Source: a bacterium
GTDB taxonomy: Bacteria; Patescibacteriota; Patescibacteriia; Patescibacteriales; JAKAJF01
Direction: 5' to 3'
Assembly: GCA_021788015.1 (NCBI GenBank)
Contig: JAJYLD010000001.1
Span: 209,581-273,580, forward strand
Length of the DNA stretch: 64,000 nt
The notes beneath the pieces were generated by a model. It was given only the letters and a program-made list of their open reading frames with translations, did not search any database and was not told the origin of the DNA. Positions within the stretch are counted from its first letter, which is position 1; every line of letters starts with the position of its first letter. The translations under genes and the position numbers were made by a program. Positions 856 to 55,745 of this stretch are shown here, piece after piece.

Positions 856-956
856 ACGAATCCTGTTAAGGGGTGACTCCAGCGGGATTGGATTTATTTT
901 TTAAGAATTAATCTATGCGGATCAAATTTTTTTGATTGCGATCTGCTTCTAACGGG
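856..956 (+). repeat. SCAIR element (start-codon-abutting inverted repeat), short form, copy 1
   Basis: The left arm ACGAAT-CCTGTTAAGGGG (856-873) is imperfectly complementary to the right arm TCTGCTTCTAACGGG (942-956). The right arm ends one base before ATG 957. The 3' part TTTTTGATTGCGATCTGCTTCTAACGGGATGAAA closely matches 44713-44745. Confidence 0.7.
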
Positions 957-2069
957 ATGAAAGTAGCATTGGTTCATGATCATTTGGCCCAGGACGGCGG
1001 AGCTGAAAAAGTTTTAAAAACTTTGACAGAAATTTTTCCCGACGCGCCGATTTTTACTTTGCTTTACGATAAAAAAGTCGTCGAGAATAACTATAAGGAC
1101 AAAAAAATAGAAGTTTCCATAATTCAGAAATTGCCCGGCGGAGTTAAATTTTACAAATGGTACATGCCGTTTATGCCCATGGCTGTTGAATTTTTTGACC
1201 TAAGTGAATTTGATTTGGTCATTTCGGATGCCAGCGCTTTTGCAAAAGGCGTAATTACGCCCTCAAAGACTCTGCATATATGCTATTGTCACACCCCCAC
1301 GCGATATCTATGGGACTATACTCACCAATACATTAATGAACTGCACTACAACAAATATCTTAAAAAAATAATCTCATTAATTTTGAATTATGTCCGCATG
1401 TGGGATAAATTGGCGGCCGATCGCGTCGATGTTTTTATCGCCAATTCAAAATTAGTGCAAAAAAGAATCGAAAAATATTATCGTCGCGGCTCGAAAGTGA
1501 TTTATCCGCCGGTCGAAATAAATGAATTTAAAGTTTCCGAGAAGACAGAGGATTATTTCCTTATCGGGGGACGTTTGGCTCCCTATAAACGTGTTGACCT
1601 CGCCATTGAAGCGTTTAAAAATACCGATTTGAAATTGAAGATTTACGGCGACGGCGTTGATTTAAAAAGGCTCAAAAAGATAGCCGGAGACGCTAAGAAC
1701 ATTGAATTCTTGGGCAGGATTACAGACCCGGAAAAAGCGGAGCTCTATACAAAATGTTTGGCGTTCTTAAATCCCCAGGAAGAAGATTTCGGCATCACTA
1801 TCGTCGAATCCATGGCCTCGGGAAGGCCGGTAATCGCTTTCGCGAAAGGCGGCGCTTTGGAAACGGTTATCCCGGGAGTGACGGGAGAATTTTTTTACAA
1901 GCAAACCCCGGAAGCACTTTATGAAGTGATAAAAAAATTTGATTCTTCGCATTATGATTCAAAAAGAATTCGCGAGCATGCGGAAAATTTTTCATCCGAA
2001 AGATTTAAAAACGAAATAAAAGAGTTTATTGAAACGGAATATAATAGATTTAACGCATTGGCGCCTTAA
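957..2069 (+). CDS. Glycosyltransferase family 4 (GT-B, retaining)
   Basis: Starts MKVALVHDHLAQDGGAEKV, and the C-terminal half has the EEDFGITIVESMASGRPVIA motif typical of GT4. The ATG at 957 is preferred to the alternative-codon start at 936, which lies inside the repeat. Confidence 0.85.
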   Translation: MKVALVHDHLAQDGGAEKVLKTLTEIFPDAPIFTLLYDKKVVENNYKDKKIEVSIIQKLPGGVKFYKWYMPFMPMAVEFFDLSEFDLVISDASAFAKGVITPSKTLHICYCHTPTRYLWDYTHQYINELHYNKYLKKIISLILNYVRMWDKLAADRVDVFIANSKLVQKRIEKYYRRGSKVIYPPVEINEFKVSEKTEDYFLIGGRLAPYKRVDLAIEAFKNTDLKLKIYGDGVDLKRLKKIAGDAKNIEFLGRITDPEKAELYTKCLAFLNPQEEDFGITIVESMASGRPVIAFAKGGALETVIPGVTGEFFYKQTPEALYEVIKKFDSSHYDSKRIREHAENFSSERFKNEIKEFIETEYNRFNALAP

Positions 2070-3656: not shown

Positions 3657-4109
3657 ATGATTAAAGATATAATCATAAAAAAACTGGAAAAATTTGAGGA
3701 TGATCGAGGCTGGCTCGCGGAAATTTACCGTGACGACGAACTTAATTATCAGCCTGTCATGGGATATGTAAGCGTAACCAAACCGGGAATAATTCGCGGA
3801 CCGCACGAGCACGTTGAGCAATCCGATTGTTTTGTTTTTTTGGGACCGGGCAGTTTTGAATTGCACCTTTGGGATCGAAGAGAAGCCAGCGAAACCAACG
3901 GCGAGTATTTAAAGATGAAAGTCGGGGAAAATAATCCGACAATGGTTATCGTCCCGCCCGGAGTCGTGCACGGATACAAATGCATCGGCGAAAAAGACGC
4001 TTATAGCATAAATCTGCCTAATAAACTTTATAAAGGCAAAAACAAAGCCGATGATGTCGACGAAATCAGATGGGAAAAAGATTCGGAATCGCCGTATAAA
4101 ATCGCATAA
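3657..4109 (+). CDS. rfbC: dTDP-4-dehydrorhamnose 3,5-epimerase-like cupin (RmlC family, short form)
   Basis: FEDDRGWLAEIY near the N-terminus, a HEH motif, PPGVVHGY, and position inside the rml operon. Confidence 0.75.
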   Translation: MIKDIIIKKLEKFEDDRGWLAEIYRDDELNYQPVMGYVSVTKPGIIRGPHEHVEQSDCFVFLGPGSFELHLWDRREASETNGEYLKMKVGENNPTMVIVPPGVVHGYKCIGEKDAYSINLPNKLYKGKNKADDVDEIRWEKDSESPYKIA

Positions 4110-14874: not shown

Positions 14875-14903
14875 TTGTCATGACACACGAAATATGATAA
14901 AAT
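14875..14903 (+). promoter_or_regulatory. Sigma-70-type promoter upstream of SCAIR copy A
   Basis: TTGTCA (14875-14880), a 17-nt spacer ending in TGa, then TAAAAT (14898-14903). Confidence 0.5.
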
Positions 14904-14925: not shown

Positions 14926-15247
14926 ATGGATCCCGTTGGAAGCCGCGATCGCGCTTCCGGGGGGAGAATAAGAATAACCAAGAGAATCTAAAGATATAAT
15001 TTAGGCGGCTATGCAATATATCTTTTTGATCGCGATCCCGACACCGCAAGTCCTATCGGATTCGGCCACGGGACAAGTTCTGCCGCACAAAATTTATTAT
15101 TAACCACGTCTCGCCCCGTAGTCACCGAATTTACGAGGCGTACCCCGTTAGAAATCTTTGGGATAAACCAAAGTAGAAATTTTTTCAAGGACATATCAGT
15201 CCGGATGGAACTTCTAACGGGGTGTACTACAGGGGCATTCTAACGGG
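14926..15247 (+). repeat. SCAIR element, long form, copy A (carries a nested small copy)
   Basis: The left arm is ATGGAT-CCCGTTGGAAGC (14926-14943) and the right arm CATTCTAACGGG ends at 15247, before ATG 15248. The core from TTGATCGCGATCCCGA onward aligns with 49522-49665 and 54048-54188. Confidence 0.8.
15143..15222 (+). repeat. Nested mini-SCAIR inserted in the core of copy A
   Basis: CCCCGTTAGAA (15143-15153) is complementary to TTCTAACGGGG (15212-15222). It interrupts GAGG-TGTA-CTAC, which is contiguous in copies B and C, and is flanked by CGTA on the left and TGTA on the right. Confidence 0.7.
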
Positions 15248-16501
15248 ATGGATAATGAAACAAAAAAATTTGGGAAACCGATCATAAGGACGATTATCAT
15301 AATCGTTCTTATGTTATTGAGTTTCGGCGCGGGACTTTATCTTCCGGGGAAAAGCGAAGTAATGCGCAATCTGTCCGCGAACGAGGCGGAATACGCCGGC
15401 AAAGTTTTAGGCCAATACGGCTTGCCGCCTGGCGGAACGATTTCCAACGATGTCAATTTCAACATGTTTTGGGATGTTTGGGACGCTCTAAAAAGCAAGT
15501 ACGTCGACCATAATAAATTAAGCGACAAGGAGATGTTTTATGGCGCTTTAAAGGGGTTGGCGGAGTCGACGGGAGATCCCTATACAGTTTTTATGGACCC
15601 CAAAGACGCCCAGAGTTTTTCAAATGATTTGGCCGGGACTTTTGAAGGCATCGGAGCCGAAATTGGAATCAAAAACAATATTTTAACCGTTGTTTCTCCT
15701 CTTGCCGGGTCGCCCGCGGACAAGGCGGGTCTTAAAGCGGGAGATAAGATTTACGCCATTAACGACGTTTCGACGGCCGGCATTTCCGTGGACGACGCGG
15801 TAGCGGAAATTCGCGGCCAGAAAGGCACGACGGTAAAATTAACCGTAATTCGCGAAGGCGTGGACAAACCCATGGATTTTGAAATTACCCGGAATACGAT
15901 TATCGTAAAGAGCGTTGATACGAAAATGGATAAGGGAATTTTTGTCATAACCATAAACAGTTTTAATGACGATACCCAGGATTTATTCGATAAAGCCGTG
16001 GAAGACGCCGTAAAAGCGAAACCGAAGGGAATCATTCTTGATTTAAGGAATAACCCGGGCGGGTACTTGGAAACTGCCATTGACGTGGCCAGCGCCTGGA
16101 TAAAAAATGGAGTCATCGTGACAGAAAAATTTTCCGACACGAAAAAGACGGATTTTCAAGCCAAGGGCGTGGCTCCTTTGGACGGTTATAAAACGGTCGT
16201 TCTTGTCAATCAGGGCAGCGCCTCCGCGTCGGAAATCGTCGCCGGAGCGTTAAAAGACGACGGCAAGGCAACTCTGGTCGGAGAAAAAACTTTCGGCAAA
16301 GGTTCTGTCCAGGATTTGGAAGATTTGCCGGACGGTTCGGAATTGAAAATAACCGTGGCGAAATGGCTGACTCCGAAAGGATACAACATCAATGAACAGG
16401 GGATAGAACCTGACGTCAAAGTGGACTTAACGCAAAAAGATTACGACGCGGGCAAAGATCCGCAAATGGACAAAGCGATTCAAATCATTAACCAAAAATA
16501 A
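15248..16501 (+). CDS. S41 family C-terminal processing peptidase
   Basis: N-terminal TM, a PDZ region (GIGAEIGIKNNILTVVSPLAGSPADKAGLKAGDKI), LDLRNNPGG, and the catalytic GSASASEI ... KTFGKGSVQ. Confidence 0.9.
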   Translation: MDNETKKFGKPIIRTIIIIVLMLLSFGAGLYLPGKSEVMRNLSANEAEYAGKVLGQYGLPPGGTISNDVNFNMFWDVWDALKSKYVDHNKLSDKEMFYGALKGLAESTGDPYTVFMDPKDAQSFSNDLAGTFEGIGAEIGIKNNILTVVSPLAGSPADKAGLKAGDKIYAINDVSTAGISVDDAVAEIRGQKGTTVKLTVIREGVDKPMDFEITRNTIIVKSVDTKMDKGIFVITINSFNDDTQDLFDKAVEDAVKAKPKGIILDLRNNPGGYLETAIDVASAWIKNGVIVTEKFSDTKKTDFQAKGVAPLDGYKTVVLVNQGSASASEIVAGALKDDGKATLVGEKTFGKGSVQDLEDLPDGSELKITVAKWLTPKGYNINEQGIEPDVKVDLTQKDYDAGKDPQMDKAIQIINQK

Positions 16502-20606: not shown

Positions 20607-20634
20607 TTGACACAATTTATTGTCATGGTATAAT
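20607..20634 (+). promoter_or_regulatory. Sigma-70-type promoter with extended -10 for the Fe-S operon
   Basis: TTGACA (20607-20612), a 16-nt spacer ending in TGg, then TATAAT (20629-20634). Confidence 0.65.
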
Positions 20635-20663: not shown

Positions 20664-20748
20664 ATACATCCCGTCAGAAGTCGTCGCTTTTGCGGGGTAA
20701 AAATTATTTTAATTTAGGCAGATTAATTAGAAGTCTGCTTCTAACGGG
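20664..20748 (+). repeat. SCAIR element, divergent short copy
   Basis: The left arm CATCCCGTCAGAAG (20667-20680) is complementary to the right arm CTTCTAACGGGATG, which ends at and includes ATG 20749. The right side carries the 19-mer GTCTGCTTCTAACGGGATG, identical to copies B and C. Confidence 0.7.
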
Positions 20749-21150
20749 ATGAAATTTTCGACAAAATCCACGTATGGCCTAAGGGCCATGATCAGGCTGG
20801 CGGAAAATTGGAAAAAAGAAAGTTTATCCTTATCGGTAATCGCAAAATCGGAAAACATTTCGCAAAAATACCTTGAAAGAATATTTGCTAGGTTAAAAAC
20901 AGCAAAATTGATCGAAAGTGAAAAGGGAGCGGGCGGCGGATATAAATTATCAAGATCTCCTTCTAAAATAAATATTTTGGAAATTATCGATGCATTGGAA
21001 GGAAAATTCGCGCCGTTTCATTGTTATACAAAAAGCGGAAAGGTTGTTTGTAGCACTTCCTGTAATTGCGGAGTTACTTTGGTTCTTAACCGCATTCAAA
21101 CCGGAATCGAAGATTCCTTAAGAAATATGAGCCTAAACCAGTTAAAATAA
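20749..21150 (+). CDS. Rrf2 family transcriptional regulator (IscR-like)
   Basis: MKFSTKSTYGLRAMIRLA winged-helix N-terminus, with C-terminal Cys residues (HCYTKSGKVVCSTSCNC). It lies at the head of the IscU/Nfu/desulfurase genes. Confidence 0.85.
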   Translation: MKFSTKSTYGLRAMIRLAENWKKESLSLSVIAKSENISQKYLERIFARLKTAKLIESEKGAGGGYKLSRSPSKINILEIIDALEGKFAPFHCYTKSGKVVCSTSCNCGVTLVLNRIQTGIEDSLRNMSLNQLK

Positions 21151-23423: not shown

Positions 23424-23437
23424 ATTCCGCTTTTTTT
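23410..23437. terminator. Bidirectional intrinsic terminator
   Basis: AAAAAGCGGAAT-AA-ATTCCGCTTTTT overlaps the desulfurase stop, between convergent genes. Confidence 0.75.
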
Positions 23438-23714
23438 AATGGAACGGATTGTTCAAACCGTCGATGTTACGAATGTATGTTTTTTGGTTTATTTTTTTTA
23501 TTATACCGTTGAATTTATTTATATCGAAAGTTTCGGTGGCGACTTCATTTTTTAACACCAAAACAATTTCAGATTGCGTAACCGATTCGTAAAAATTATT
23601 ATAAAGAAAGATGACGTCGAAATACAAAACGAAAATTATAAGCAAGACCAAAAGAAAATAAGTCGCCCCAGAAATTTTTCGGAATGAAATTTTTATTTTC
23701 CCCGCTATACGCAT
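23436..23714 (-). CDS. Small membrane-anchored protein at the distal end of the pilus operon
   Basis: 92 aa with one N-terminal TM (ATYFLLVLLIIFVLYFDVIFL). Its ATG directly follows a SCAIR right arm. Confidence 0.55.
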   Translation of the reverse strand: MRIAGKIKISFRKISGATYFLLVLLIIFVLYFDVIFLYNNFYESVTQSEIVLVLKNEVATETFDINKFNGIIKKINQKTYIRNIDGLNNPFH

Positions 23715-23807
23715 CCGTTAGAAGCGGATTTCAATCATTTTTGATTATACAAATCCGCATAAATAATGATTAAATTTTATCCCGGTCGAAGCGTGCTTCT
23801 AACGGGG
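23715..23807 (-). repeat. SCAIR element, short divergent copy on the minus strand
   Basis: Read on the minus strand: CCCCGTTAGAAGC (23807-23795) ... CCGCTTCTAACGG (23727-23715), immediately followed by ATG (23714-23712). The internal hairpin is GCGGATTT/AAATCCGC. Confidence 0.7.
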
Positions 23808-43059: not shown

Positions 43060-44598
43060 ATGGCGATAATCTTTATTTTTTTGCTTATTTTGGTCGCTTC
43101 CGTCTTCACTCCCCAGTATATTTTATTTTTATTGGTTCTAAATCTTTTCGCCGGACTTTTTCTGTCTCTCTCCCAAATAATAATCGCTTTGCTGCCGCAC
43201 GCAAAGCCTCTTCATAAACAATTGAATTCGCAACCGTTCGTTTCGATTTTCGTTCCCGCCTATAACGAACCTCCAGCGATTTTGATGCAAACGCTGGAAA
43301 CCCTTTCAAAATTGAGATATGACAATTTTGAAGTTTTGGTCATAGACAATAACACCGAAGATCCGGATATTTGGAAACCGGTGGAAGCGTTTACAAAAAC
43401 GCTCGGAGAAAAGTTTCGTTTCTTTCATGTCGATCGCCTTTCCGGTTTTAAAGCCGGCGCGCTCAATTACCTTATAAAATACATGGAAAAGAAATCGGAA
43501 TATGTGGCCGTAATCGACGCCGATTATCTCGTCCATTCCTATTTTTTGACAACCGCTTTGTCATATTTCACGAATAAAGACATAGCTCTCGTGCAATTTC
43601 CGCAGCAATACCGCAATCGCATCAAAAAGAATCAGGCCATAGCCGACGAATACAGACATTTTTTCGGTATTTACATGAATATGGCCAATCATCTCGACTG
43701 CGTTCCCTCGACCGGTACCGTAAGTATTTATAAGTCGAACGTTTTGCGCCAAATCGGCGGTTTTCGGGGCGAGGCGCTTACGGAAGACGCCGATATCGGA
43801 CTTAGAATTTACGGAGCGGGTTATCGCGGGATATTTGTCGACCGACCGATCGGTTACGGTTTGATGCCTTACGACCTTGAAGCTTACCGGAAGCAAAAAT
43901 GGAGATGGGCGTTCGGAAACGCGCAATCGATAAAAACTCTTTTTTCTCTGTTTGGGAAAATTCCGTTCAGGTCCTGGCTAGGATTTCTTATCCATCTTAC
44001 GGCATGGGATCATTTGAATTTCTTACCATTCGCCGTTTTGGCCGCTTATTCCGTCGTTTTGCTGCCGAACATTCCGGTAACGCCCACGCATAGGCTTCTG
44101 CTTGAAATCGCTTCTTTGTCGATTTTTGTCACCTTGATATCCAAATTGATTCTTATTCGAGTGGCTTTGCGGAACCAGCCGAATTCTTTATCGCGTTCTT
44201 TGCGGGCTTTCGGAGTCCATATCGGCATGACTTTTTTGTATTCCGAAGCATGGCTTACCTATATTCTGCGCATGAAATTCACTTTTGAACGAACAAACAA
44301 ATTTATTTTTGCGAAAATGCCGAGCCTTTTGAAAAATTCGTACAAAGAGCTTGTCCTGGGATTATGGTTTTTGATCGGGATGGTTGAGGCTATCTTCTGG
44401 GGTACAAGAATAATAACGGTCGTCGCTTATTTTGTCTCGTCGATAATTTTATTTTCCGTTTACTACGTGTATTGGAAAATTTATCCGACAAAATCATATT
44501 CGAAAAAAATATTTGAAAACACGGAAAAGAAATATCTTCCTTATATCAAGTCAACGACTCACAATGTAAATTACGAATTAACCGAAGCAAGATTATGA
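43060..44598 (+). CDS. Membrane-embedded processive GT2 synthase (cellulose/chitin/hyaluronan-synthase-like)
   Basis: N-terminal TMs, a GT-A core (VIDNNTED, DADY, TEDADIG), then the QxxRW motif (RKQKWRWAFGN) followed by about six TM helices. Confidence 0.8.
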   Translation: MAIIFIFLLILVASVFTPQYILFLLVLNLFAGLFLSLSQIIIALLPHAKPLHKQLNSQPFVSIFVPAYNEPPAILMQTLETLSKLRYDNFEVLVIDNNTEDPDIWKPVEAFTKTLGEKFRFFHVDRLSGFKAGALNYLIKYMEKKSEYVAVIDADYLVHSYFLTTALSYFTNKDIALVQFPQQYRNRIKKNQAIADEYRHFFGIYMNMANHLDCVPSTGTVSIYKSNVLRQIGGFRGEALTEDADIGLRIYGAGYRGIFVDRPIGYGLMPYDLEAYRKQKWRWAFGNAQSIKTLFSLFGKIPFRSWLGFLIHLTAWDHLNFLPFAVLAAYSVVLLPNIPVTPTHRLLLEIASLSIFVTLISKLILIRVALRNQPNSLSRSLRAFGVHIGMTFLYSEAWLTYILRMKFTFERTNKFIFAKMPSLLKNSYKELVLGLWFLIGMVEAIFWGTRIITVVAYFVSSIILFSVYYVYWKIYPTKSYSKKIFENTEKKYLPYIKSTTHNVNYELTEARL

Positions 44599-44739
44599 AT
44601 TCCATTAGAAGCTCAGCCGGAAACGGACGAGCGCGATTGCTTCGTTGGAAAGACAATAGAAATAAAAAATAAAGGATTAAAGATTAACTCGAGCGGATAA
44701 GCAGTTCAAACTTTTTGATCGCGATTCGCTTCCAATGGG
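44595..44739 (+). repeat. SCAIR element, short form, with compensated arm variants
   Basis: The left arm is ATGAAT-TCCATTAGAAGC (44595-44612) and the right arm GCTTCCAATGGG (44728-44739) ends before ATG 44740. The internal TTTTTGATCGCGAT matches the start of the long-form core. Confidence 0.7.
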
Positions 44740-45777
44740 ATGAAAATAGCTCTCCTTGCTCCGCTTTGGAAAAAAATTCCTCCCGAGAAATACGGCGGAT
44801 CGGAATTGGTTGTCGCCAATTTGGCAAAAGGATTAACCGAACTCGGGCATGATGTGACAACCTTGGCCTGCGGCGGATCAGAAGTATCCGGCAAACTTAT
44901 TCCTGTTATTGAAAAGCCGATGTATGATCTCGTTGGCGGTTTCGATTGGAGCGGAATCAAGCAATATGAATTTTTGTCTTTTTTTGAATTGGGCAAGCGA
45001 ATAAAAGATTTCGATATCGTTCATAACCACATGGGTTTTCATCCAATCGCTCTCGCTCCGTTTCTGGATATTCCGTTTGTCACGACGCTCCATAGCAGTT
45101 TGCCGCCGGATTTTCCGTTTTTGGCCGAAGCTTTTCGCGAATATCCGTTTGTCTCAATCAGCGAGGCGCAAAGAAGATTGGCGCCAGACTTGAATTATGT
45201 CGGAACGGTATATCACGGCATCGACGTGAAATCCTTTCGGCCGCGACCTGATGGCGACGGGAACGGTTTTGTCTTTATGGGCACCATGTCTCGCAATAAA
45301 GGCATCGATATCGCGGTCAAAGCCGCTCGCGCGCTCGGAGTAAAATTGACTATCGCGGGAGAAATAAGAGAAAGCGACGGGTCCTTTCTTGAAAAGGAAG
45401 TTTTTCCCTATGTTGACGGGAAAAACATACAACTTGTCGGAGAAGTCGATCATGAAGAAAAAAATCGTTTGTTTGCCGAGGCCGACGGCGTTCTTTTTCC
45501 ATCACGCTGGAACGAAGCCTTCGGATTGGTTATGGCGGAGGCGCTCGCTTGCGGCACGCCCGTTGTTGCGCTAAACAACGGAGCGGTTCCGGAAGTTATT
45601 AGAAACGGAAAAACGGGTTTTATCGTCGAAAACGAGCGGGAATTCACGGAAGCGATGGAAAAAGTCGGCAAAATTTCAAGAGAAGTTTGCCGCTCCGAAG
45701 CGGAACGGCGCTTCGATATTTCCGCGATGGCGGAAAATTATGATTACGTATATAAAAAATTAATCCAAACAAAATGA
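44740..45777 (+). CDS. Glycosyltransferase family 4
   Basis: MKIALLAPLWKKIPPEKYGGSELVV, and C-terminal PSRWNEAFGLVMAEALACGTPVVA. Confidence 0.85.
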   Translation: MKIALLAPLWKKIPPEKYGGSELVVANLAKGLTELGHDVTTLACGGSEVSGKLIPVIEKPMYDLVGGFDWSGIKQYEFLSFFELGKRIKDFDIVHNHMGFHPIALAPFLDIPFVTTLHSSLPPDFPFLAEAFREYPFVSISEAQRRLAPDLNYVGTVYHGIDVKSFRPRPDGDGNGFVFMGTMSRNKGIDIAVKAARALGVKLTIAGEIRESDGSFLEKEVFPYVDGKNIQLVGEVDHEEKNRLFAEADGVLFPSRWNEAFGLVMAEALACGTPVVALNNGAVPEVIRNGKTGFIVENEREFTEAMEKVGKISREVCRSEAERRFDISAMAENYDYVYKKLIQTK

Positions 45778-49402: not shown

Positions 49403-49432
49403 CCTCAAATTATGTTAAAATAAATTCATGAA
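49403..49432 (+). promoter_or_regulatory. Sigma-70-type promoter with extended -10 just upstream of SCAIR copy B
   Basis: TTGCAA (49403-49408), an 18-nt spacer ending in TGt, then TAAAAT (49427-49432). The predicted start lies within a few nt of the element's left edge at 49439. Confidence 0.55.
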
Positions 49433-49438
49433 TCCCGT

Positions 49439-49665
49439 TTTAGAAGCCGCGGTAGCTTTCACGGGAAGAATAGGTCTGATGTGAAATAAATTAAAATTTT
49501 TAACTTAGCAGATATAAATCAAATTTGATCGCGATCCCGATACAACAAATCCTGTCGGATTTGGCTACGGGACAAGTTCTATCGCACAAAACTTATTTTT
49601 AACCACGTCTCGCCCCGTAGTCACCGAGTTCACGAGGTGTACTACGGGGGTCTGCTTCTAACGGG
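49439..49665 (+). repeat. SCAIR element, long form, copy B
   Basis: The left arm is ATGAAT-CCCGTTTTAGAAGC and the right arm GTCTGCTTCTAACGGG ends at 49665, before ATG 49666. The core at 49522-49665 is nearly identical to 54048-54188. Confidence 0.8.
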
Positions 49666-51129
49666 ATGAATATCACCATTGATTTTAGCGCCATAAATAA
49701 TTTCTTAAACCAGCCGCTCGGCCCGTTGATGTGGCAAATTTTTTATACGATAGGATGGATTCCCGCCGTTTTTATCATGCTTTGGGGATTCAAGGAAATG
49801 TGGGTTGAGTATATACATAATCGTTGGGCGGGAGCGCAGAAAAAGATTTTATTGGCCATAGACATACCGCGCGGCAATACGCAATCTCCGCGAGCGGTCG
49901 AGAATATGTTCGCTTACCTCGCCGGCGCTCATGGCACCATCAATTTGGTTGAAAATTATTGGGAAGGGAAAATCCAGCTTTCTTTCAGCTTTGAAATCGT
50001 CAGCATAGACGGATATACTCAGTTTATAATCCGCACGCCCGAAGTTTTTCGCCATCTTGTCGAAACCGCGATTTATTCGCAATATCCGGACGCGGAAATC
50101 ACGGAAGTGAACGACTATATCGAAGGCATGCCGAAGAAATTCCCGGACGAAGAATACGACATGTGGGGGACGGAATTCATTCAGGCGAAAAACGAGGCCT
50201 ACCCCATTAAATTATATACGGAATTCGAGCACCAGATGGGCCCGGTGGAAACTTTTTATCGCGATCCCATGGCGGCATTGATGGATTTGTGCAGCAGTTT
50301 GCGCAAGGGGGAACAGCTTTGGTTCCAGATTATCGTCAAGCCCATCGACATGAACGAGTGGACAAAAATAGGGGACAAGGAGGCGGCGAAAATATTAAAA
50401 GAGAAGCCGGCGGAAGCCAAAGGAATTCTGCCTGGCATCGAAAAGGGTTTTTTTGGATTCTTTTCCGTATTGAGCGATATGATGGGATCCATGTTCGGCT
50501 ATGCTCCGGCGGAAAAGCAAAAGGAAGAAAAAAAGGATGAATCTCTCAAGATGATGCAGTTGAAACCGAAGGAGAGGAAACAGGTCGAGGCCGTTCACGC
50601 CAAAATTGGGAAAATCGGCTTTCATTGCAAATTTAGGTTTGTCTATATCGCGAAAAAGGACGTTATGAACAAACCGAAAGTCGTAAACGGTTTCGTGGGC
50701 TTCATGAAACAATTCGCGGCCATGGATTTGAACAATTTAAAACCGGATATGAAAAAAACCGCCACATCCGTTCATTATTTTTTTAAAAACTATCGCTTAA
50801 ACGGAAGGAAAAAAAGAGTAATAAGAAACTACATTGCCAGGGACGGAGGCAAAGGAAGGAAAATGGGTATTTTCACGACAGACGAATTGGCGACAGTTTG
50901 GCACTTCCCGGTCGAAAGCGTGGTCAAAGCCCCGATGATCCAGAAAGCGCCGGGAAGAAAGGCGGAGCCGCCATCAAGCCTTCCCATCGATATCGAACCG
51001 GCAAGCGAAGCCGTCTTCGAGCCGCGATTCCGAGAAGAAGTTCTCGGTCAAAAACCGAAGCAGATGCAGGAAGAAAAAATAAAAGAAGAAGAAAAAGGTT
51101 CGCCGCCGGACAATTTACCGTTTATTTAG
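49666..51129 (+). CDS. Hypothetical membrane-anchored protein, partner of the downstream TraD/VirD4-like ATPase
   Basis: 487 aa. One N-terminal TM (LMWQIFYTIGWIPAVFIMLWGF), a large soluble body and a Lys/Glu-rich C-terminus. No family recognised. Confidence 0.6.
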   Translation: MNITIDFSAINNFLNQPLGPLMWQIFYTIGWIPAVFIMLWGFKEMWVEYIHNRWAGAQKKILLAIDIPRGNTQSPRAVENMFAYLAGAHGTINLVENYWEGKIQLSFSFEIVSIDGYTQFIIRTPEVFRHLVETAIYSQYPDAEITEVNDYIEGMPKKFPDEEYDMWGTEFIQAKNEAYPIKLYTEFEHQMGPVETFYRDPMAALMDLCSSLRKGEQLWFQIIVKPIDMNEWTKIGDKEAAKILKEKPAEAKGILPGIEKGFFGFFSVLSDMMGSMFGYAPAEKQKEEKKDESLKMMQLKPKERKQVEAVHAKIGKIGFHCKFRFVYIAKKDVMNKPKVVNGFVGFMKQFAAMDLNNLKPDMKKTATSVHYFFKNYRLNGRKKRVIRNYIARDGGKGRKMGIFTTDELATVWHFPVESVVKAPMIQKAPGRKAEPPSSLPIDIEPASEAVFEPRFREEVLGQKPKQMQEEKIKEEEKGSPPDNLPFI

Positions 51130-53108: not shown

Positions 53109-53213
53109 AAAATGTCTAAATTATAATTTCCAATTTCTAAATTTAGGAATTGGGAATTTTATTAGACCTTATAATTTAGAAATTAGAAATTTTTGTCATT
53201 ACTCTCGCCTATT

Positions 53214-54017
53214 ATGAAAATCAAAGCCAGTTTACATATTCATACCAAAGAAGATAAAAAAGAGGGTTTTTTTATAAGCTACTCGATTTATGATTTAATT
53301 GATCATGCGAAATTGTTAGGCTTCAGGGTCTTGGCCTTGACGACCCATAAAACTTTTGTTTATAAGGAAGAGTACGGAAAGTACGCGGAAGAGAAAGGCA
53401 TTTTACTAATCCCCGGAATCGAACTTGATATGCATGCGCCGTTTTTAAAACGATGCCATATTCTCGTTTTAAATTGCGAAAAAGACATCGAGAAAGTAAA
53501 AACATTTTCTGATCTGAAAAAATACAAAAAAAAGAATCCGAAAATTTTTATCATCGCCCCTCATCCCAATTTCGACTATTTCAATTCGATGGGCATGCGC
53601 AATTTGAAAAAATATATCGGACTTTTTGACGCGATCGAACATTCTTGGTTTTTTTCAACATTCTTGAATTTTAACAGACGCGCGGGAAGAATCGCAAAAA
53701 AATTCAAAAAGCCCTTTATCGCCACGGCCGATTGTCATACCCTTGATTTTTTCAATTCCGATTACATAACCCTTGACTTAAAAAAAATGGACGCCGATTC
53801 CGTATTCAAAAAATTAAGAGAAAGAAAGTTTGAAAATGTGACCAAACGAAAAAAATTCTTGAAAATAATTTTTTATTATCTTAAAGAATTTATCTTTAAA
53901 TATTACGGATTGCTTTTGATCGTAAAAATTAAGAACATTTTAGAAAAAGATACGAATCCCGTTAGAAGCCGCGATCGCTTTAATGGGGAAAAAATAAAAC
54001 ATGAAAAAATTTCATAA
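53214..54017 (+). CDS. PHP family metal-dependent phosphoesterase
   Basis: The ATG at 53214 gives MKIKASLHIHTKED (HxH motif), with later TTH, APHP and ADCH metal-ligand motifs. The last 22 codons run through the left arm of SCAIR copy C. Confidence 0.7.
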   Translation: MKIKASLHIHTKEDKKEGFFISYSIYDLIDHAKLLGFRVLALTTHKTFVYKEEYGKYAEEKGILLIPGIELDMHAPFLKRCHILVLNCEKDIEKVKTFSDLKKYKKKNPKIFIIAPHPNFDYFNSMGMRNLKKYIGLFDAIEHSWFFSTFLNFNRRAGRIAKKFKKPFIATADCHTLDFFNSDYITLDLKKMDADSVFKKLRERKFENVTKRKKFLKIIFYYLKEFIFKYYGLLLIVKIKNILEKDTNPVRSRDRFNGEKIKHEKIS

Positions 54018-54188
54018 TAATATGCAGATTATAGAATCAAAATTTTTTTTGATCGCGATCCCGATACAACAAATCCTGTCGGATTTGGCTACGGGACAAG
54101 TTCTATCGCACAAAACTTATTTTAACTACGTCTCGCCCCGTAGTCACCGAGTTTACGAGGTGTACTACCGGGGTCTGCTTCTAACGGG
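53952..54188 (+). repeat. SCAIR element, long form, copy C
   Basis: The left arm ACGAAT-CCCGTTAGAAGC lies inside the 3' end of the PHP gene, and the right arm GTCTGCTTCTAACGGG ends at 54188, before ATG 54189. Confidence 0.8.
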
Positions 54189-55745
54189 ATGGATTATCTA
54201 AAAATTGGAAAAGCCACGGATCTCGATGGCGGGGATAAAAAATTATACCGGTTTTTGGAAATTCTTCCCGGCTCGCTTTCCTGGGCGACTTTAATCATTT
54301 TAACTTTGGCATCTTATCTCTGGCCGGTATGGGCGGCTTATTTTATTATCGCCTTTGACGTTTATTGGCTCTTATTGGTCGCTTTTCTTGGAATTCATTT
54401 GATTGTCAGTTATCGCAAATTGACGCAAAACAAAAAAGTGAATTGGGAAAAGGAATGTGAAAAAATCGATCTTTCCGATTCCGGTTTCAGTTTCGATTCC
54501 TGGCGAGACGTTTATCATCTCATAATTTTCCCGACCTATAACGAGAGCCTGGAAATTATCCGCCCCAGCATAGAAAGCGTTTTAAACGACGGCTATCCTT
54601 TGGATAAAATTATTCTGGTTTTGGCGATTGAAGAACGCGGCGGTCCCGAAGCTTTGGAGCGCGCGAAAACGATCGAGCGAGAATACGGAAATAAATTCGG
54701 ACATTTTTTAATTACCACCCATCCCGATGGAATTGTCGGAGAACTTAAAGCAAAGGGCGCGAACCAAGCATGGGCGGCCCGAGAGGTCAAAGAAAAAATT
54801 ATCGACAAAGAGGGGATCGATTACGATCGTATACTTGTGAGCGTTTTTGATATCGATACGATTGTGGATAAAGGTTATTTTTTCCGTCTGACCCAAAAAT
54901 TTTTAACTTCAAAAAATCCTTATCGCGCCAGTTATCAGCCGGTTCCTGTTTATTTCAACAATCTTTGGGAAGCGCCTTTTTTCGCGCGCGTGGCCGCATC
55001 CTCGAACACTTTTTGGCAAATGATGCAACAGATCAGGGAAGAAAAATTGGCGACGTATTCATCTCACTCTATGACATGGAAAGCTTTGGTTGAAATAGGA
55101 TTTTGGTCGACAAGTATGGTTAGCGAGGACTCAAGAATTTTTTGGCATTGTTTTTTGTATTATAACGGCGATTATCGAGTGGAACCGCTTTATTTTCCGG
55201 TATCGATGGACGTTACCATGGATGAAAGCTTTAAAAAAACCATGATCAATTTGTACAAACAGCAAAGGAGATGGGGCTGGGGCGTGGAAAATTTGCCCTA
55301 TCTTATGTTTAATACGATAAAAAGATGGAAAATTTTGCCAAAAAAAGGAAAAATGATCAATCGCATTTCGGTTCAACTTTATGGATTTCACTCCTGGGCG
55401 ACAAACGCCCTTATTATCGGTATTATCGGTTGGTTTCCCGTTCTTCTTGGGGGGGGGCGGTTTAATTCCACCGTGCTCTCCGGAAATTTACCTTATATAA
55501 GTCGAACGTTAATGACCTTGGCTATGGGCGGCATGGTTTTATCGGCCGTCGTTTCAACATTGCTTTTGCCCGAAAGACCGAAAAGATACGGATTTATAAA
55601 AAATATTATCATGTTTTTTCAATGGTTGATTCTGCCATTGAGCATAATTATTTTCGGATCCATCCCCGGGTTGGAGGCGCAGACTCGCTTGATGTTGGGC
55701 AAATATATGGGTTTCTTTGTTACGCCGAAAGCGAGAAAAAGTTAG
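54189..55745 (+). CDS. Membrane-embedded GT2-like synthase with a QxxRW motif
   Basis: N-terminal TMs, a GT-A-like core (IIFPTYNESLE, VFDIDT, SEDSRIF), YKQQRRWGWG, and C-terminal TM helices. Confidence 0.75.
   Translation: MDYLKIGKATDLDGGDKKLYRFLEILPGSLSWATLIILTLASYLWPVWAAYFIIAFDVYWLLLVAFLGIHLIVSYRKLTQNKKVNWEKECEKIDLSDSGFSFDSWRDVYHLIIFPTYNESLEIIRPSIESVLNDGYPLDKIILVLAIEERGGPEALERAKTIEREYGNKFGHFLITTHPDGIVGELKAKGANQAWAAREVKEKIIDKEGIDYDRILVSVFDIDTIVDKGYFFRLTQKFLTSKNPYRASYQPVPVYFNNLWEAPFFARVAASSNTFWQMMQQIREEKLATYSSHSMTWKALVEIGFWSTSMVSEDSRIFWHCFLYYNGDYRVEPLYFPVSMDVTMDESFKKTMINLYKQQRRWGWGVENLPYLMFNTIKRWKILPKKGKMINRISVQLYGFHSWATNALIIGIIGWFPVLLGGGRFNSTVLSGNLPYISRTLMTLAMGGMVLSAVVSTLLLPERPKRYGFIKNIIMFFQWLILPLSIIIFGSIPGLEAQTRLMLGKYMGFFVTPKARKS

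Follow-up and report, generated by a model that had tools for sequence, protein, structure and literature searches.

A nested 80-nt element upstream of ctpA and a Patescibacteria-wide MITE family whose main subfamily is tied to start codons

The window analyzed here, a 64-kb stretch of DNA with a GC content of 40%, contains eight copies of a family of small elements with inverted-repeat termini. One copy is nested within another, and each of the remaining seven is oriented in the same sense as the ORF that follows it and ends precisely at the ATG of that ORF. The host of the nested element, which we refer to as long copy A (14931-15248, forward strand), runs from TCCCGTTGGAAGC to CATTCTAACGGGA, and its last base, A15248, is the A of the start codon of ctpA (ORF 15248-16501), which encodes an S41 peptidase. 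Copy A is flanked by a perfectly matching target duplication, TGGA, at 14927-14930 and 15249-15252 (attaTGGA/TCCC ... GGGA/TGGAtaat, with slashes at the element ends). The TG of the right duplication completes the working ATG (15248-15250), while the left duplication together with A14926 represents the original ATG. Upstream of copy A, at 14875-14903, we observe a promoter matching the consensus at 10/12 positions, and a 12/12 consensus promoter (TTGACA-N16-TATAAT, with the TG) is found at 20607-20634, 35 nt upstream of the copy at 20669-20749, which places both elements inside 5′ leaders.

Two other long copies are uninterrupted. Long copy B (49433-49666, forward strand) lies between TGAA at 49429-49432 and 49667-49670, ends at the ATG of the ORF at 49666-51129 and has a 2-nt indel in its left arm (CCCGTTTTAGAAGC). 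Long copy C (53957-54189, forward strand) ends at the ATG of a GT2-like ORF (54189-55745), and its flanks, CGAA and TGGA, constitute a decayed duplication; a PHP-domain ORF (53193-54017) ends within this copy and takes its last ~20 codons from the element. Among the shorter copies, the one at 861-957 (forward strand) has a degenerate left arm (TCCTGTTAAGGGG) and CGAA/TGAA flanks and ends at the ATG of a GT4 glycosyltransferase gene, while an 81-nt copy at 20669-20749 (forward strand) ends at the ATG of an Rrf2 regulator gene. A diverged 141-nt copy at 44600-44740 (forward strand; TTCCATTAGAAGC ... GCTTCCAATGGGA) is flanked by a perfect TGAA at 44596-44599 and 44741-44744, and the ATG upstream of it (44595-44597) overlaps the TGA stop of the preceding GT2 ORF (43060-44598) as ATGA. 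Finally, a decayed copy on the reverse strand (23713-23807) ends at the ATG (23714-23712) of the ORF at 23436-23714 and has no recognizable target duplication. To the left of three copies (855-860, 20664-20668 and 53951-53956), the flank reads ATAC(G)A(A) in place of ATGRA, and the upstream ATG of these copies seems to have been lost after insertion, for example by a change from ATG to ACG.

The genes behind the window copies are unrelated to each other: they include two GT4 glycosyltransferases, a GT2-like sequence, the S41 peptidase CtpA, an Rrf2 regulator and two sequences without a Pfam match. Glycosyltransferases make up 3/7 of these genes (957-2069, 44740-45777 and 54189-55745) and occur in sugar-transferase clusters (see also 21-854 and 43060-44598), which may reflect only the local gene content of the window.

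When compared to copies B and C, copy A consists of the same sequence plus an 80-nt element at 15143-15222. At its junctions, copy A reads TACGAGG, followed by CGTA (15139-15142), the left terminus CCCCGTTAGAA (15143-15153), the right terminus TTCTAACGGGG (15212-15222), TGTA (15223-15226) and CTACAGGGG, whereas copy B reads ...CACGAGGTGTACTACGGGGG with TGTA at 49638-49641, and copy C reads ...TACGAGGTGTACTACCGGGG with TGTA at 54161-54164. Jointly, the uninterrupted copies give ...ACGAGGTGTACTAC..., and an empty version of the nested site in copy A would read GAGG[C/T]GTACTACAGGGG. In a BLAST search of the copy B module against the window, copy A aligned as two pieces (15026-15143 and 15217-15235), indicating that the extra segment is a clean insertion relative to copies B and C. 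The lengths agree with this: the 318 nt of copy A minus 80 and 4 leave 234, and copies B and C are 234 and 233 nt long, respectively. The initial annotation had described a nested insert that splits copy A, with B and C uninterrupted, and the sequence, the two-piece alignment and the length arithmetic all confirm this description. It had also held that the insert carries the inverted termini of its own family, as we indeed observe: the termini are 11 bp long and perfect, and the terminal 11-mer (allowing at most 1 mismatch) occurs 9 times in the window versus 1.1 expected, a count that none of 100 shuffles reached. When folded separately, the insert gives a hairpin whose closing stem consists of its termini (-33.4 kcal/mol, z = -5.9), and its interior has no BLAST match elsewhere in the window or in the fetched loci. 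A 12-codon ORF (MELLTGCTTGAF, 15205-15243) begins in the inner element and ends at the terminal TAA of the host, 4 nt before the ctpA ATG, an arrangement that may be a coincidence.

The nested arrangement could conceivably be an artefact of assembly, in which a repeat was collapsed or wrongly joined. The termini are indeed repeats, and the corresponding contig in an independent Logan assembly (SRR13170411) ends within the inner element, just past its left terminus, a type of break typical of repeats. The same nested junction is nonetheless present in this second assembly, and its right side (inner element, TGTA, host and ctpA) is identical to that of the ENA contig, so the arrangement is not an artefact of one assembly. 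With an insert interior that is unique sequence and a geometry that has flanking duplications as predicted by transposition, we regard an artefact as hardly credible.

The insert is bracketed by a pair of tetranucleotides, which had been interpreted as a 4-bp duplication with one difference. The two flanks agree at 3/4 positions, with a single mismatch between the left CGTA and the right TGTA, whose uninterrupted counterparts in copies B and C are also TGTA. Agreement at this level occurs by chance in ~5% of cases, and the match is therefore weak on its own; it becomes convincing because the whole family makes 4-bp duplications. TGTA recurs as a target duplication in the family, and the C/T mismatch position itself varies among long copies, being C in L036 (GAGGCGTACTA) and T in B, C and L111. 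The interpretation of the pair as a duplication is thus supported. The insertion site would have been a TGTA inside the 3′ hairpin of long copy A, of which 4 bp were duplicated, and the present difference would have arisen by a later change in one of the repeats or from a site that was already polymorphic.

To place this case in context, we defined elements of the family as YCCCGTTAGAAGC...GCTTCTAACGGGR. The terminal inverted repeat formed by these two sequences is 13-14 bp long, with 99% of cells paired across 95 copies. The elements are 65-320 nt long, most often 116-123 nt, and contain no transposase gene, their ORFs being at most 45 codons long with the exception of one 55-codon and one 66-codon reading. 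Eight copies are present in the 64-kb window and more than 150 in the fetched loci. The 4-nt flanks are identical in 87/154 elements, and this signal is limited to the boundary 2 nt outside CCGTTAGAA and to a length of 4. With duplicates removed, identical flanks are found in 85/143 elements, whereas a permutation control, in which left flanks were shuffled among elements in 5000 trials, gave a mean of 36.3 and a maximum of 50. In the same non-redundant set, the two sides still agree where the right flank is not TGAA (TGGA in 16 elements and TGCG, TGAG and TGTA in 3 each). Overall, the duplicated tetranucleotides vary and include TGAA, TGGA, TCAA, TCGA, CCTG and CAAG.

A second, independent nested insertion is present in locus L046, in which a host element (864-1008) contains an inner element (897-963) bracketed by a perfect CCTG/CCTG duplication. 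A sister copy in the same locus (1278-1351) is uninterrupted and reads ...GAGGTGCCTGTAGTCAC..., and the length arithmetic again closes (145 - 67 - 4 = 74). The two hosts have their own duplications, TCAA for 864-1008 and TCGA for 1278-1351. Both inner elements, that of L046 and that of copy A, are C..G-ended (CCCCG...CGGGG). Further insertions and pairs of empty and filled sites, by which the initial annotation had proposed to judge mobility, therefore exist among paralogous copies, with copy A standing against copies B and C in the window and 864-1008 against 1278-1351 in L046.

The extra segment could alternatively stem from two family copies whose repeated termini underwent local recombination or replication slippage. 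Substrates for ectopic exchange do exist, given how many times the termini recur in the genome, and partial and tandem composites are also present (L071 and L090). Neither process, however, would place duplicated 4-bp stretches of the host element at both ends of the segment or leave the host otherwise exactly collinear with copies B and C, and the same geometry with a perfect duplication has arisen independently in L046. In addition, the inner termini are of the C..G type and those of the host are of the T..A type, so the inner element did not arise by copying the arms of its host. We consider recombination or slippage very improbable. The reading in which an element inserted into a member of its own family is instead supported by the flank statistics and by the second nested case, and we conclude that the 80-nt segment is very likely a C..G-ended member of the short subfamily of a Patescibacteria-wide MITE family that transposed into a TGTA site in long copy A.

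MITEs are recognized by terminal repeats, target duplication, small size and the lack of a transposase (reviewed in PMC3184786), and the family displays every defining MITE feature that could be tested. Tandem copies with one common TGAA are observed in L004 and L030, which would follow if insertion also favored the rebuilt ATGAA; the coordinates of such tandem or partial tandem arrangements are 7671-7900 in L004, 6501-6725 in L030 and 1855-2060 in L090. Mobility would rest on a DDE-type transposase that is supplied in trans and makes 4-bp staggered cuts. We found no gene for such a transposase in the window or in 1.25 Mb of loci, and the autonomous partner with the same termini that the initial annotation had suggested looking for was likewise not found there: in the 1.25 Mb of loci, there is no terminal-repeat pair more than 400 bp apart with its own duplication. 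Unpaired termini considered as ends of autonomous elements were all chance matches, locus edges or decayed partners, and pairs of terminal repeats 400-4000 bp apart with equal flanks were all neighboring MITEs with a common TGAA. Four matches in viral contigs, none with a paired terminus, are probably due to chance.

An empty site at the orthologous position was also sought. Among 77 metagenome loci and 120 ctpA protein relatives, the only near-identical sequence is from the same strain and carries the insert, and a strain-level empty site at the copy A locus was not found. The next ctpA relatives are at most 69% identical; their upstream regions are free of elements, but at this distance their N-termini do not align.

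The long form is itself a shared feature of the family. Copies A, B and C and the copies in L036 and L111 contain an extra ~125-nt module between GAYCGCGAYC and TGCTTC, which is 74-97% conserved between genomes (15026-15236, 49525-49650 and 54049-54173 in the window, 3-112 in L036 and 3775-3901 on the reverse strand of L111). The suggestion that the 80-nt segment might be an integral helix of this form can be set aside, as the segment is absent from B, C, L036 and L111. The 3′ hairpin of the long form (CCCCGTAGT...ACTACGGGG) looks like a terminal-repeat pair that has decayed and lacks one base pair. As a lead, this resemblance suggests that the long form may have originated long ago by nested insertion and now spreads as a single element. 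Separately, a GC-rich palindrome, CCTGCC(n)GGCAGG, occurs at the same position in the left arm, between GAAGCC and CGCG, in six loci of different genomes (L045, L015, L055, L012, L024 and L111:3700-4020 on the reverse strand) and is a second optional module of the family.

An exact scan for CTGCTTCTAACGGGATG, using one genome per species, extends the family to at least 113 loci, with nearly all of the matches listed being from Patescibacteria. The lineages among the matches listed are Saccharibacteria, Paceibacteria, Nomura-, Kaiser-, Levy-, Moran-, Kerfeld-, Lipton-, Taylor- and Buchananbacteria and Microgenomates, and the few records among them that are labelled non-Patescibacteria are either chance matches or typical copies. 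Invariance of the right-arm core is conditional on the seed. The left terminus lies outside of the seed, yet it is conserved as strongly as the right terminus. The initial annotation therefore caught part of a larger picture, in which the family spans the Patescibacteria and its main subfamily is tied to start codons.

This main subfamily is comprised of T..A-ended copies, which are found at start codons with a duplication of TGAA (54), TGGA (17) or another TGNN. Among 81 non-redundant reconstructed empty sites, 94% have an A immediately before the duplication, a feature imposed neither by the seed nor by requiring equal flanks, and positions 3 and 4 of the duplication are A/G and A, respectively. 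The A preceding the left duplication identifies the upstream ATG as the original start codon of the gene. The working ATG consists of the terminal A of the T..A element and the duplicated TG, whereas a C..G-ended copy at a gene start yields GTG instead (L054). The seed pattern of most loci included CTGC...ATG, and the large counts of start codons and orientations are biased as a result. In data that were not chosen by the seed, start-codon residence is nevertheless seen in 7/7 window copies and 3/3 copies from ctpA-centered loci. Similarly, the seed-biased orientation count is 76 sense and 0 antisense, while in the few data free of this bias, all 6 window copies that could be oriented are sense, and the non-seed loci comprise 6 concordant cases and 1 discordant (doubtful) one. 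The window contains 377 occurrences of ATGAA or ATGGA. A target preference for ATGRA, combined with the loss of insertions inside genes, would concentrate copies at start codons, and these two processes explain much of the start-codon residence, perhaps not all of it.

The orientation data also bear on whether the inverted repeats flank an invertible segment, that is, a phase-variable promoter flipped by a site-specific recombinase. Bacteroides capsule invertons have a comparable arrangement, with inverted repeats upstream of genes, and in our data many genes, several glycosyltransferase genes among them, are preceded by the same inverted repeat. Among copies whose interior can be recognized, however, none in the window is antisense to its gene, and the non-seed loci provide only the one doubtful case. 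Target duplications are not an inverton feature, and the nested and tandem copies fit transposition. We therefore hold this possibility to be very remote.

Several other readings were considered and dropped. Two early interpretations, translational bypass from one ATG to the other and an integron attC-like site, were abandoned once the duplications were seen. Elements derived from IS200/IS605 (PATE or REP) have subterminal hairpins, lack terminal inverted repeats and target duplications and insert 3′ of a fixed tetranucleotide; they are ruled out by the true terminal inverted repeats and variable duplicated tetranucleotides of the present family.

At the level of structure, the arms of the element form a ~21-bp hairpin, composed of an outer 14-bp helix (P1) made up of the terminal repeats and an inner 7-bp helix (P2). 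Two bases of the working ATG, the A and the U, lie within P1, in which the four innermost pairs covary; in P2, all 7 pairs have changed on both sides. Cells of the hairpin are paired in 94% of cases versus 34-40% when the partner column is slid, and the elements fold with minimum free energies of -33 to -36 kcal/mol (z = -4 to -6). We also note that P1 (e.g., 53957-53970 with 54176-54189) pairs GCTTCTA+ACGGG with CCCGT+TAGAAGC in the same 7+5 bp arrangement as a tRNA acceptor/T-arm minihelix, and that the left arm GAATCCCGTTAGAAGCC resembles a tRNA 3′ end, a resemblance only.

Such a hairpin could in principle belong to a structured leader RNA that acts in cis as a riboswitch or attenuator does, with the 80-nt segment as a variable expansion helix. 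The location of the elements in 5′ leaders directly before the ATG, the covariation of P1 and P2, the presence of optional modules at fixed positions in different genomes and folds that are far more stable than those of shuffled sequence are all as expected of such an RNA. It would leave unexplained, however, the 4-bp direct repeats of host flank in over half of the copies (87/154), and the loop is variable, with no conserved unpaired core. The downstream genes are functionally unrelated, and the insert, missing from all four other long copies, has no homologue beyond its termini. Searches of Rfam point in the same direction: no family matched the whole window at gathering thresholds, copy B gave nothing at E values up to 10, and a canonical copy gave only sub-threshold matches to microRNA-type hairpins at E values up to 10. 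A leader RNA as the nature of the family is accordingly highly improbable, although the hairpin may nonetheless act as RNA, which is compatible with a mobile origin.

The loop contains a second signal, which depends on the reading frame. We define the TAA frame as the frame that ends at the TAA within CTTCTAACGGG, 4 nt before the ATG of the gene. In the loop, there are 125 stops in this frame versus 242 and 257 in the other frames, stop-free loops are found in 45/107 copies versus 9 and 7, and in-frame ATGs number 84 versus 27 and 27. The frame is open in only ~40% of copies, and most of the window copies have no such ORF. Codon usage of the upstream ORF shows no preference for the TAA frame, and SD-like motifs before the internal ATG are rare (16/123). 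This combination, stop depletion with ATGs and neither a codon-usage nor an SD signal, points to an upstream ORF that is translated irrespective of its sequence rather than to a functional peptide, and the depletion in the TAA frame suggests a coupled upstream ORF. A full-length ORF from the upstream ATG to the TAA was rejected as the unit under selection, as its phase is random (30/85 in frame).

The genome context is consistent with such a role. The genome of the window is nearly devoid of Shine-Dalgarno motifs, with an SD-like 4-mer at -18 to -4 in only 3/43 long ORFs (at least 200 aa), and -10-like hexamers upstream of the copies peak where leaders would be short or absent. The copies would be transcribed as 5′ leaders in this genome almost without SD motifs, and in many of them a short upstream ORF would start in the AT-rich loop, traverse the right arm and stop at the TAA of CTTCTAACGGG. 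Ribosomes translating this ORF would unfold the hairpin and be passed on to the gene by termination-reinitiation, which would make insertion at a start codon tolerable only in the sense orientation. A further possibility, which we regard as tentative and on balance doubtful, is that the T..A-ended subfamily is a Patescibacteria-wide start-codon module and more than a tolerated parasite. If this were true, gene starts with ATGRA, including some leaderless ones, would be the targets of the transposase, and whichever way the element inserted, its own terminal base would restore the ATG. The gene would then be placed under a hairpin and an upstream ORF ending 4 nt before its ATG, and dozens of genes per SD-less genome would depend on termination-reinitiation via a mobile element. 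The long form would in turn be a composite grown by nested insertion, as in copy A.

Insertion sequences with 4-bp duplications include the IS5 group, IS1380 and IS701, and MITEs are normally deletion derivatives of such IS. The 4-bp duplication and short terminal inverted repeats of the present family are the expected product of a DDE transposase of the IS5/IS1380/IS701 type, and an IS with the termini of the family was not found in the window or the 1.25 Mb of loci. A full-text literature search using the terminal sequences, MITEs in Patescibacteria and start-codon MITEs yielded no relevant description. Compared to described bacterial MITEs, such as Correia/NEMIS of Neisseria, RUP, Nezha and ERIC (PMC3184786), the family is alike in having terminal inverted repeats, a fixed-length duplication, a size below ~400 bp and no transposase, as well as many copies, a long RNA stem-loop and nested and tandem copies, and the described elements are often co-transcribed with neighboring genes, as the present copies would be. 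The known families are confined to a genus or family, whereas the present one maintains the same 10-bp terminal core across many Patescibacteria lineages, and Correia elements duplicate TA, whereas the duplication here is 4 bp and is TGRA at gene starts (PMC3184786). Also unlike described bacterial MITEs, the present family sits on the start codon and rebuilds the ATG from its last base, and in many copies it carries a putative fixed-phase upstream ORF ending 4 nt before the gene. Its distinguishing features are therefore its spread over multiple lineages of Patescibacteria, start-codon residence, ATG reconstitution and the putative phased upstream ORF.

Individual aspects of the family have analogues elsewhere. 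For the idea of a coupled mini-ORF, MIRUs would be the nearest: in the passages devoted to them in PMC3184786 (citing Supply et al. 1997), these are likewise small intergenic operon repeats with tetranucleotide direct repeats, and they contain small ORFs that abut or overlap the flanking stop and start codons, suggesting translational coupling. As described in those passages, MIRUs differ in being 40-100 bp units that are often in tandem, with imperfect terminal repeats, in occurring only in mycobacteria and in having no tie to start codons through a target duplication. For translation-compatible insertion, Rickettsia palindromic elements (RPE) may serve as the nearest analogue. In the account of Ogata et al. 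(2000) given in PMC3184786, RPE are similarly palindromic and mobile, ~100-150 bp long and compatible with translation in compact genomes, and they lie in frame inside coding sequences and are translated into protein. In the present family, by contrast, the frame shared with the gene is closed, and the element, which stops precisely at the ATG, contributes nothing to the protein. Neisseria REP2 and Borrelia IR repeats, which provide a promoter, ribosome-binding site and ATG (PMC3184786), resemble the family in lying directly upstream of genes and supplying initiation signals. These repeats have no terminal inverted repeats or target duplications (PMC3184786), whereas in the present family the ATG is made from an element base and duplicated host bases, with no SD motif.

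Patescibacteria have genomes of ~1 Mb with very little non-coding space, and our literature search gave no comparable repeat family for them. Here, a MITE has kept its terminal core across many Patescibacteria lineages and persists by inserting at start codons while leaving them functional, which is a different route from the in-frame insertion of RPE. On a practical level, repeats of the family break assemblies, as with the Logan contig that ends inside one, and mislead gene callers on start sites. If the upstream ORF and hairpin are functional, they would offer a testable handle on translation start in SD-less Patescibacteria and a natural expression-control cassette for organisms whose genetic tools are only now emerging.
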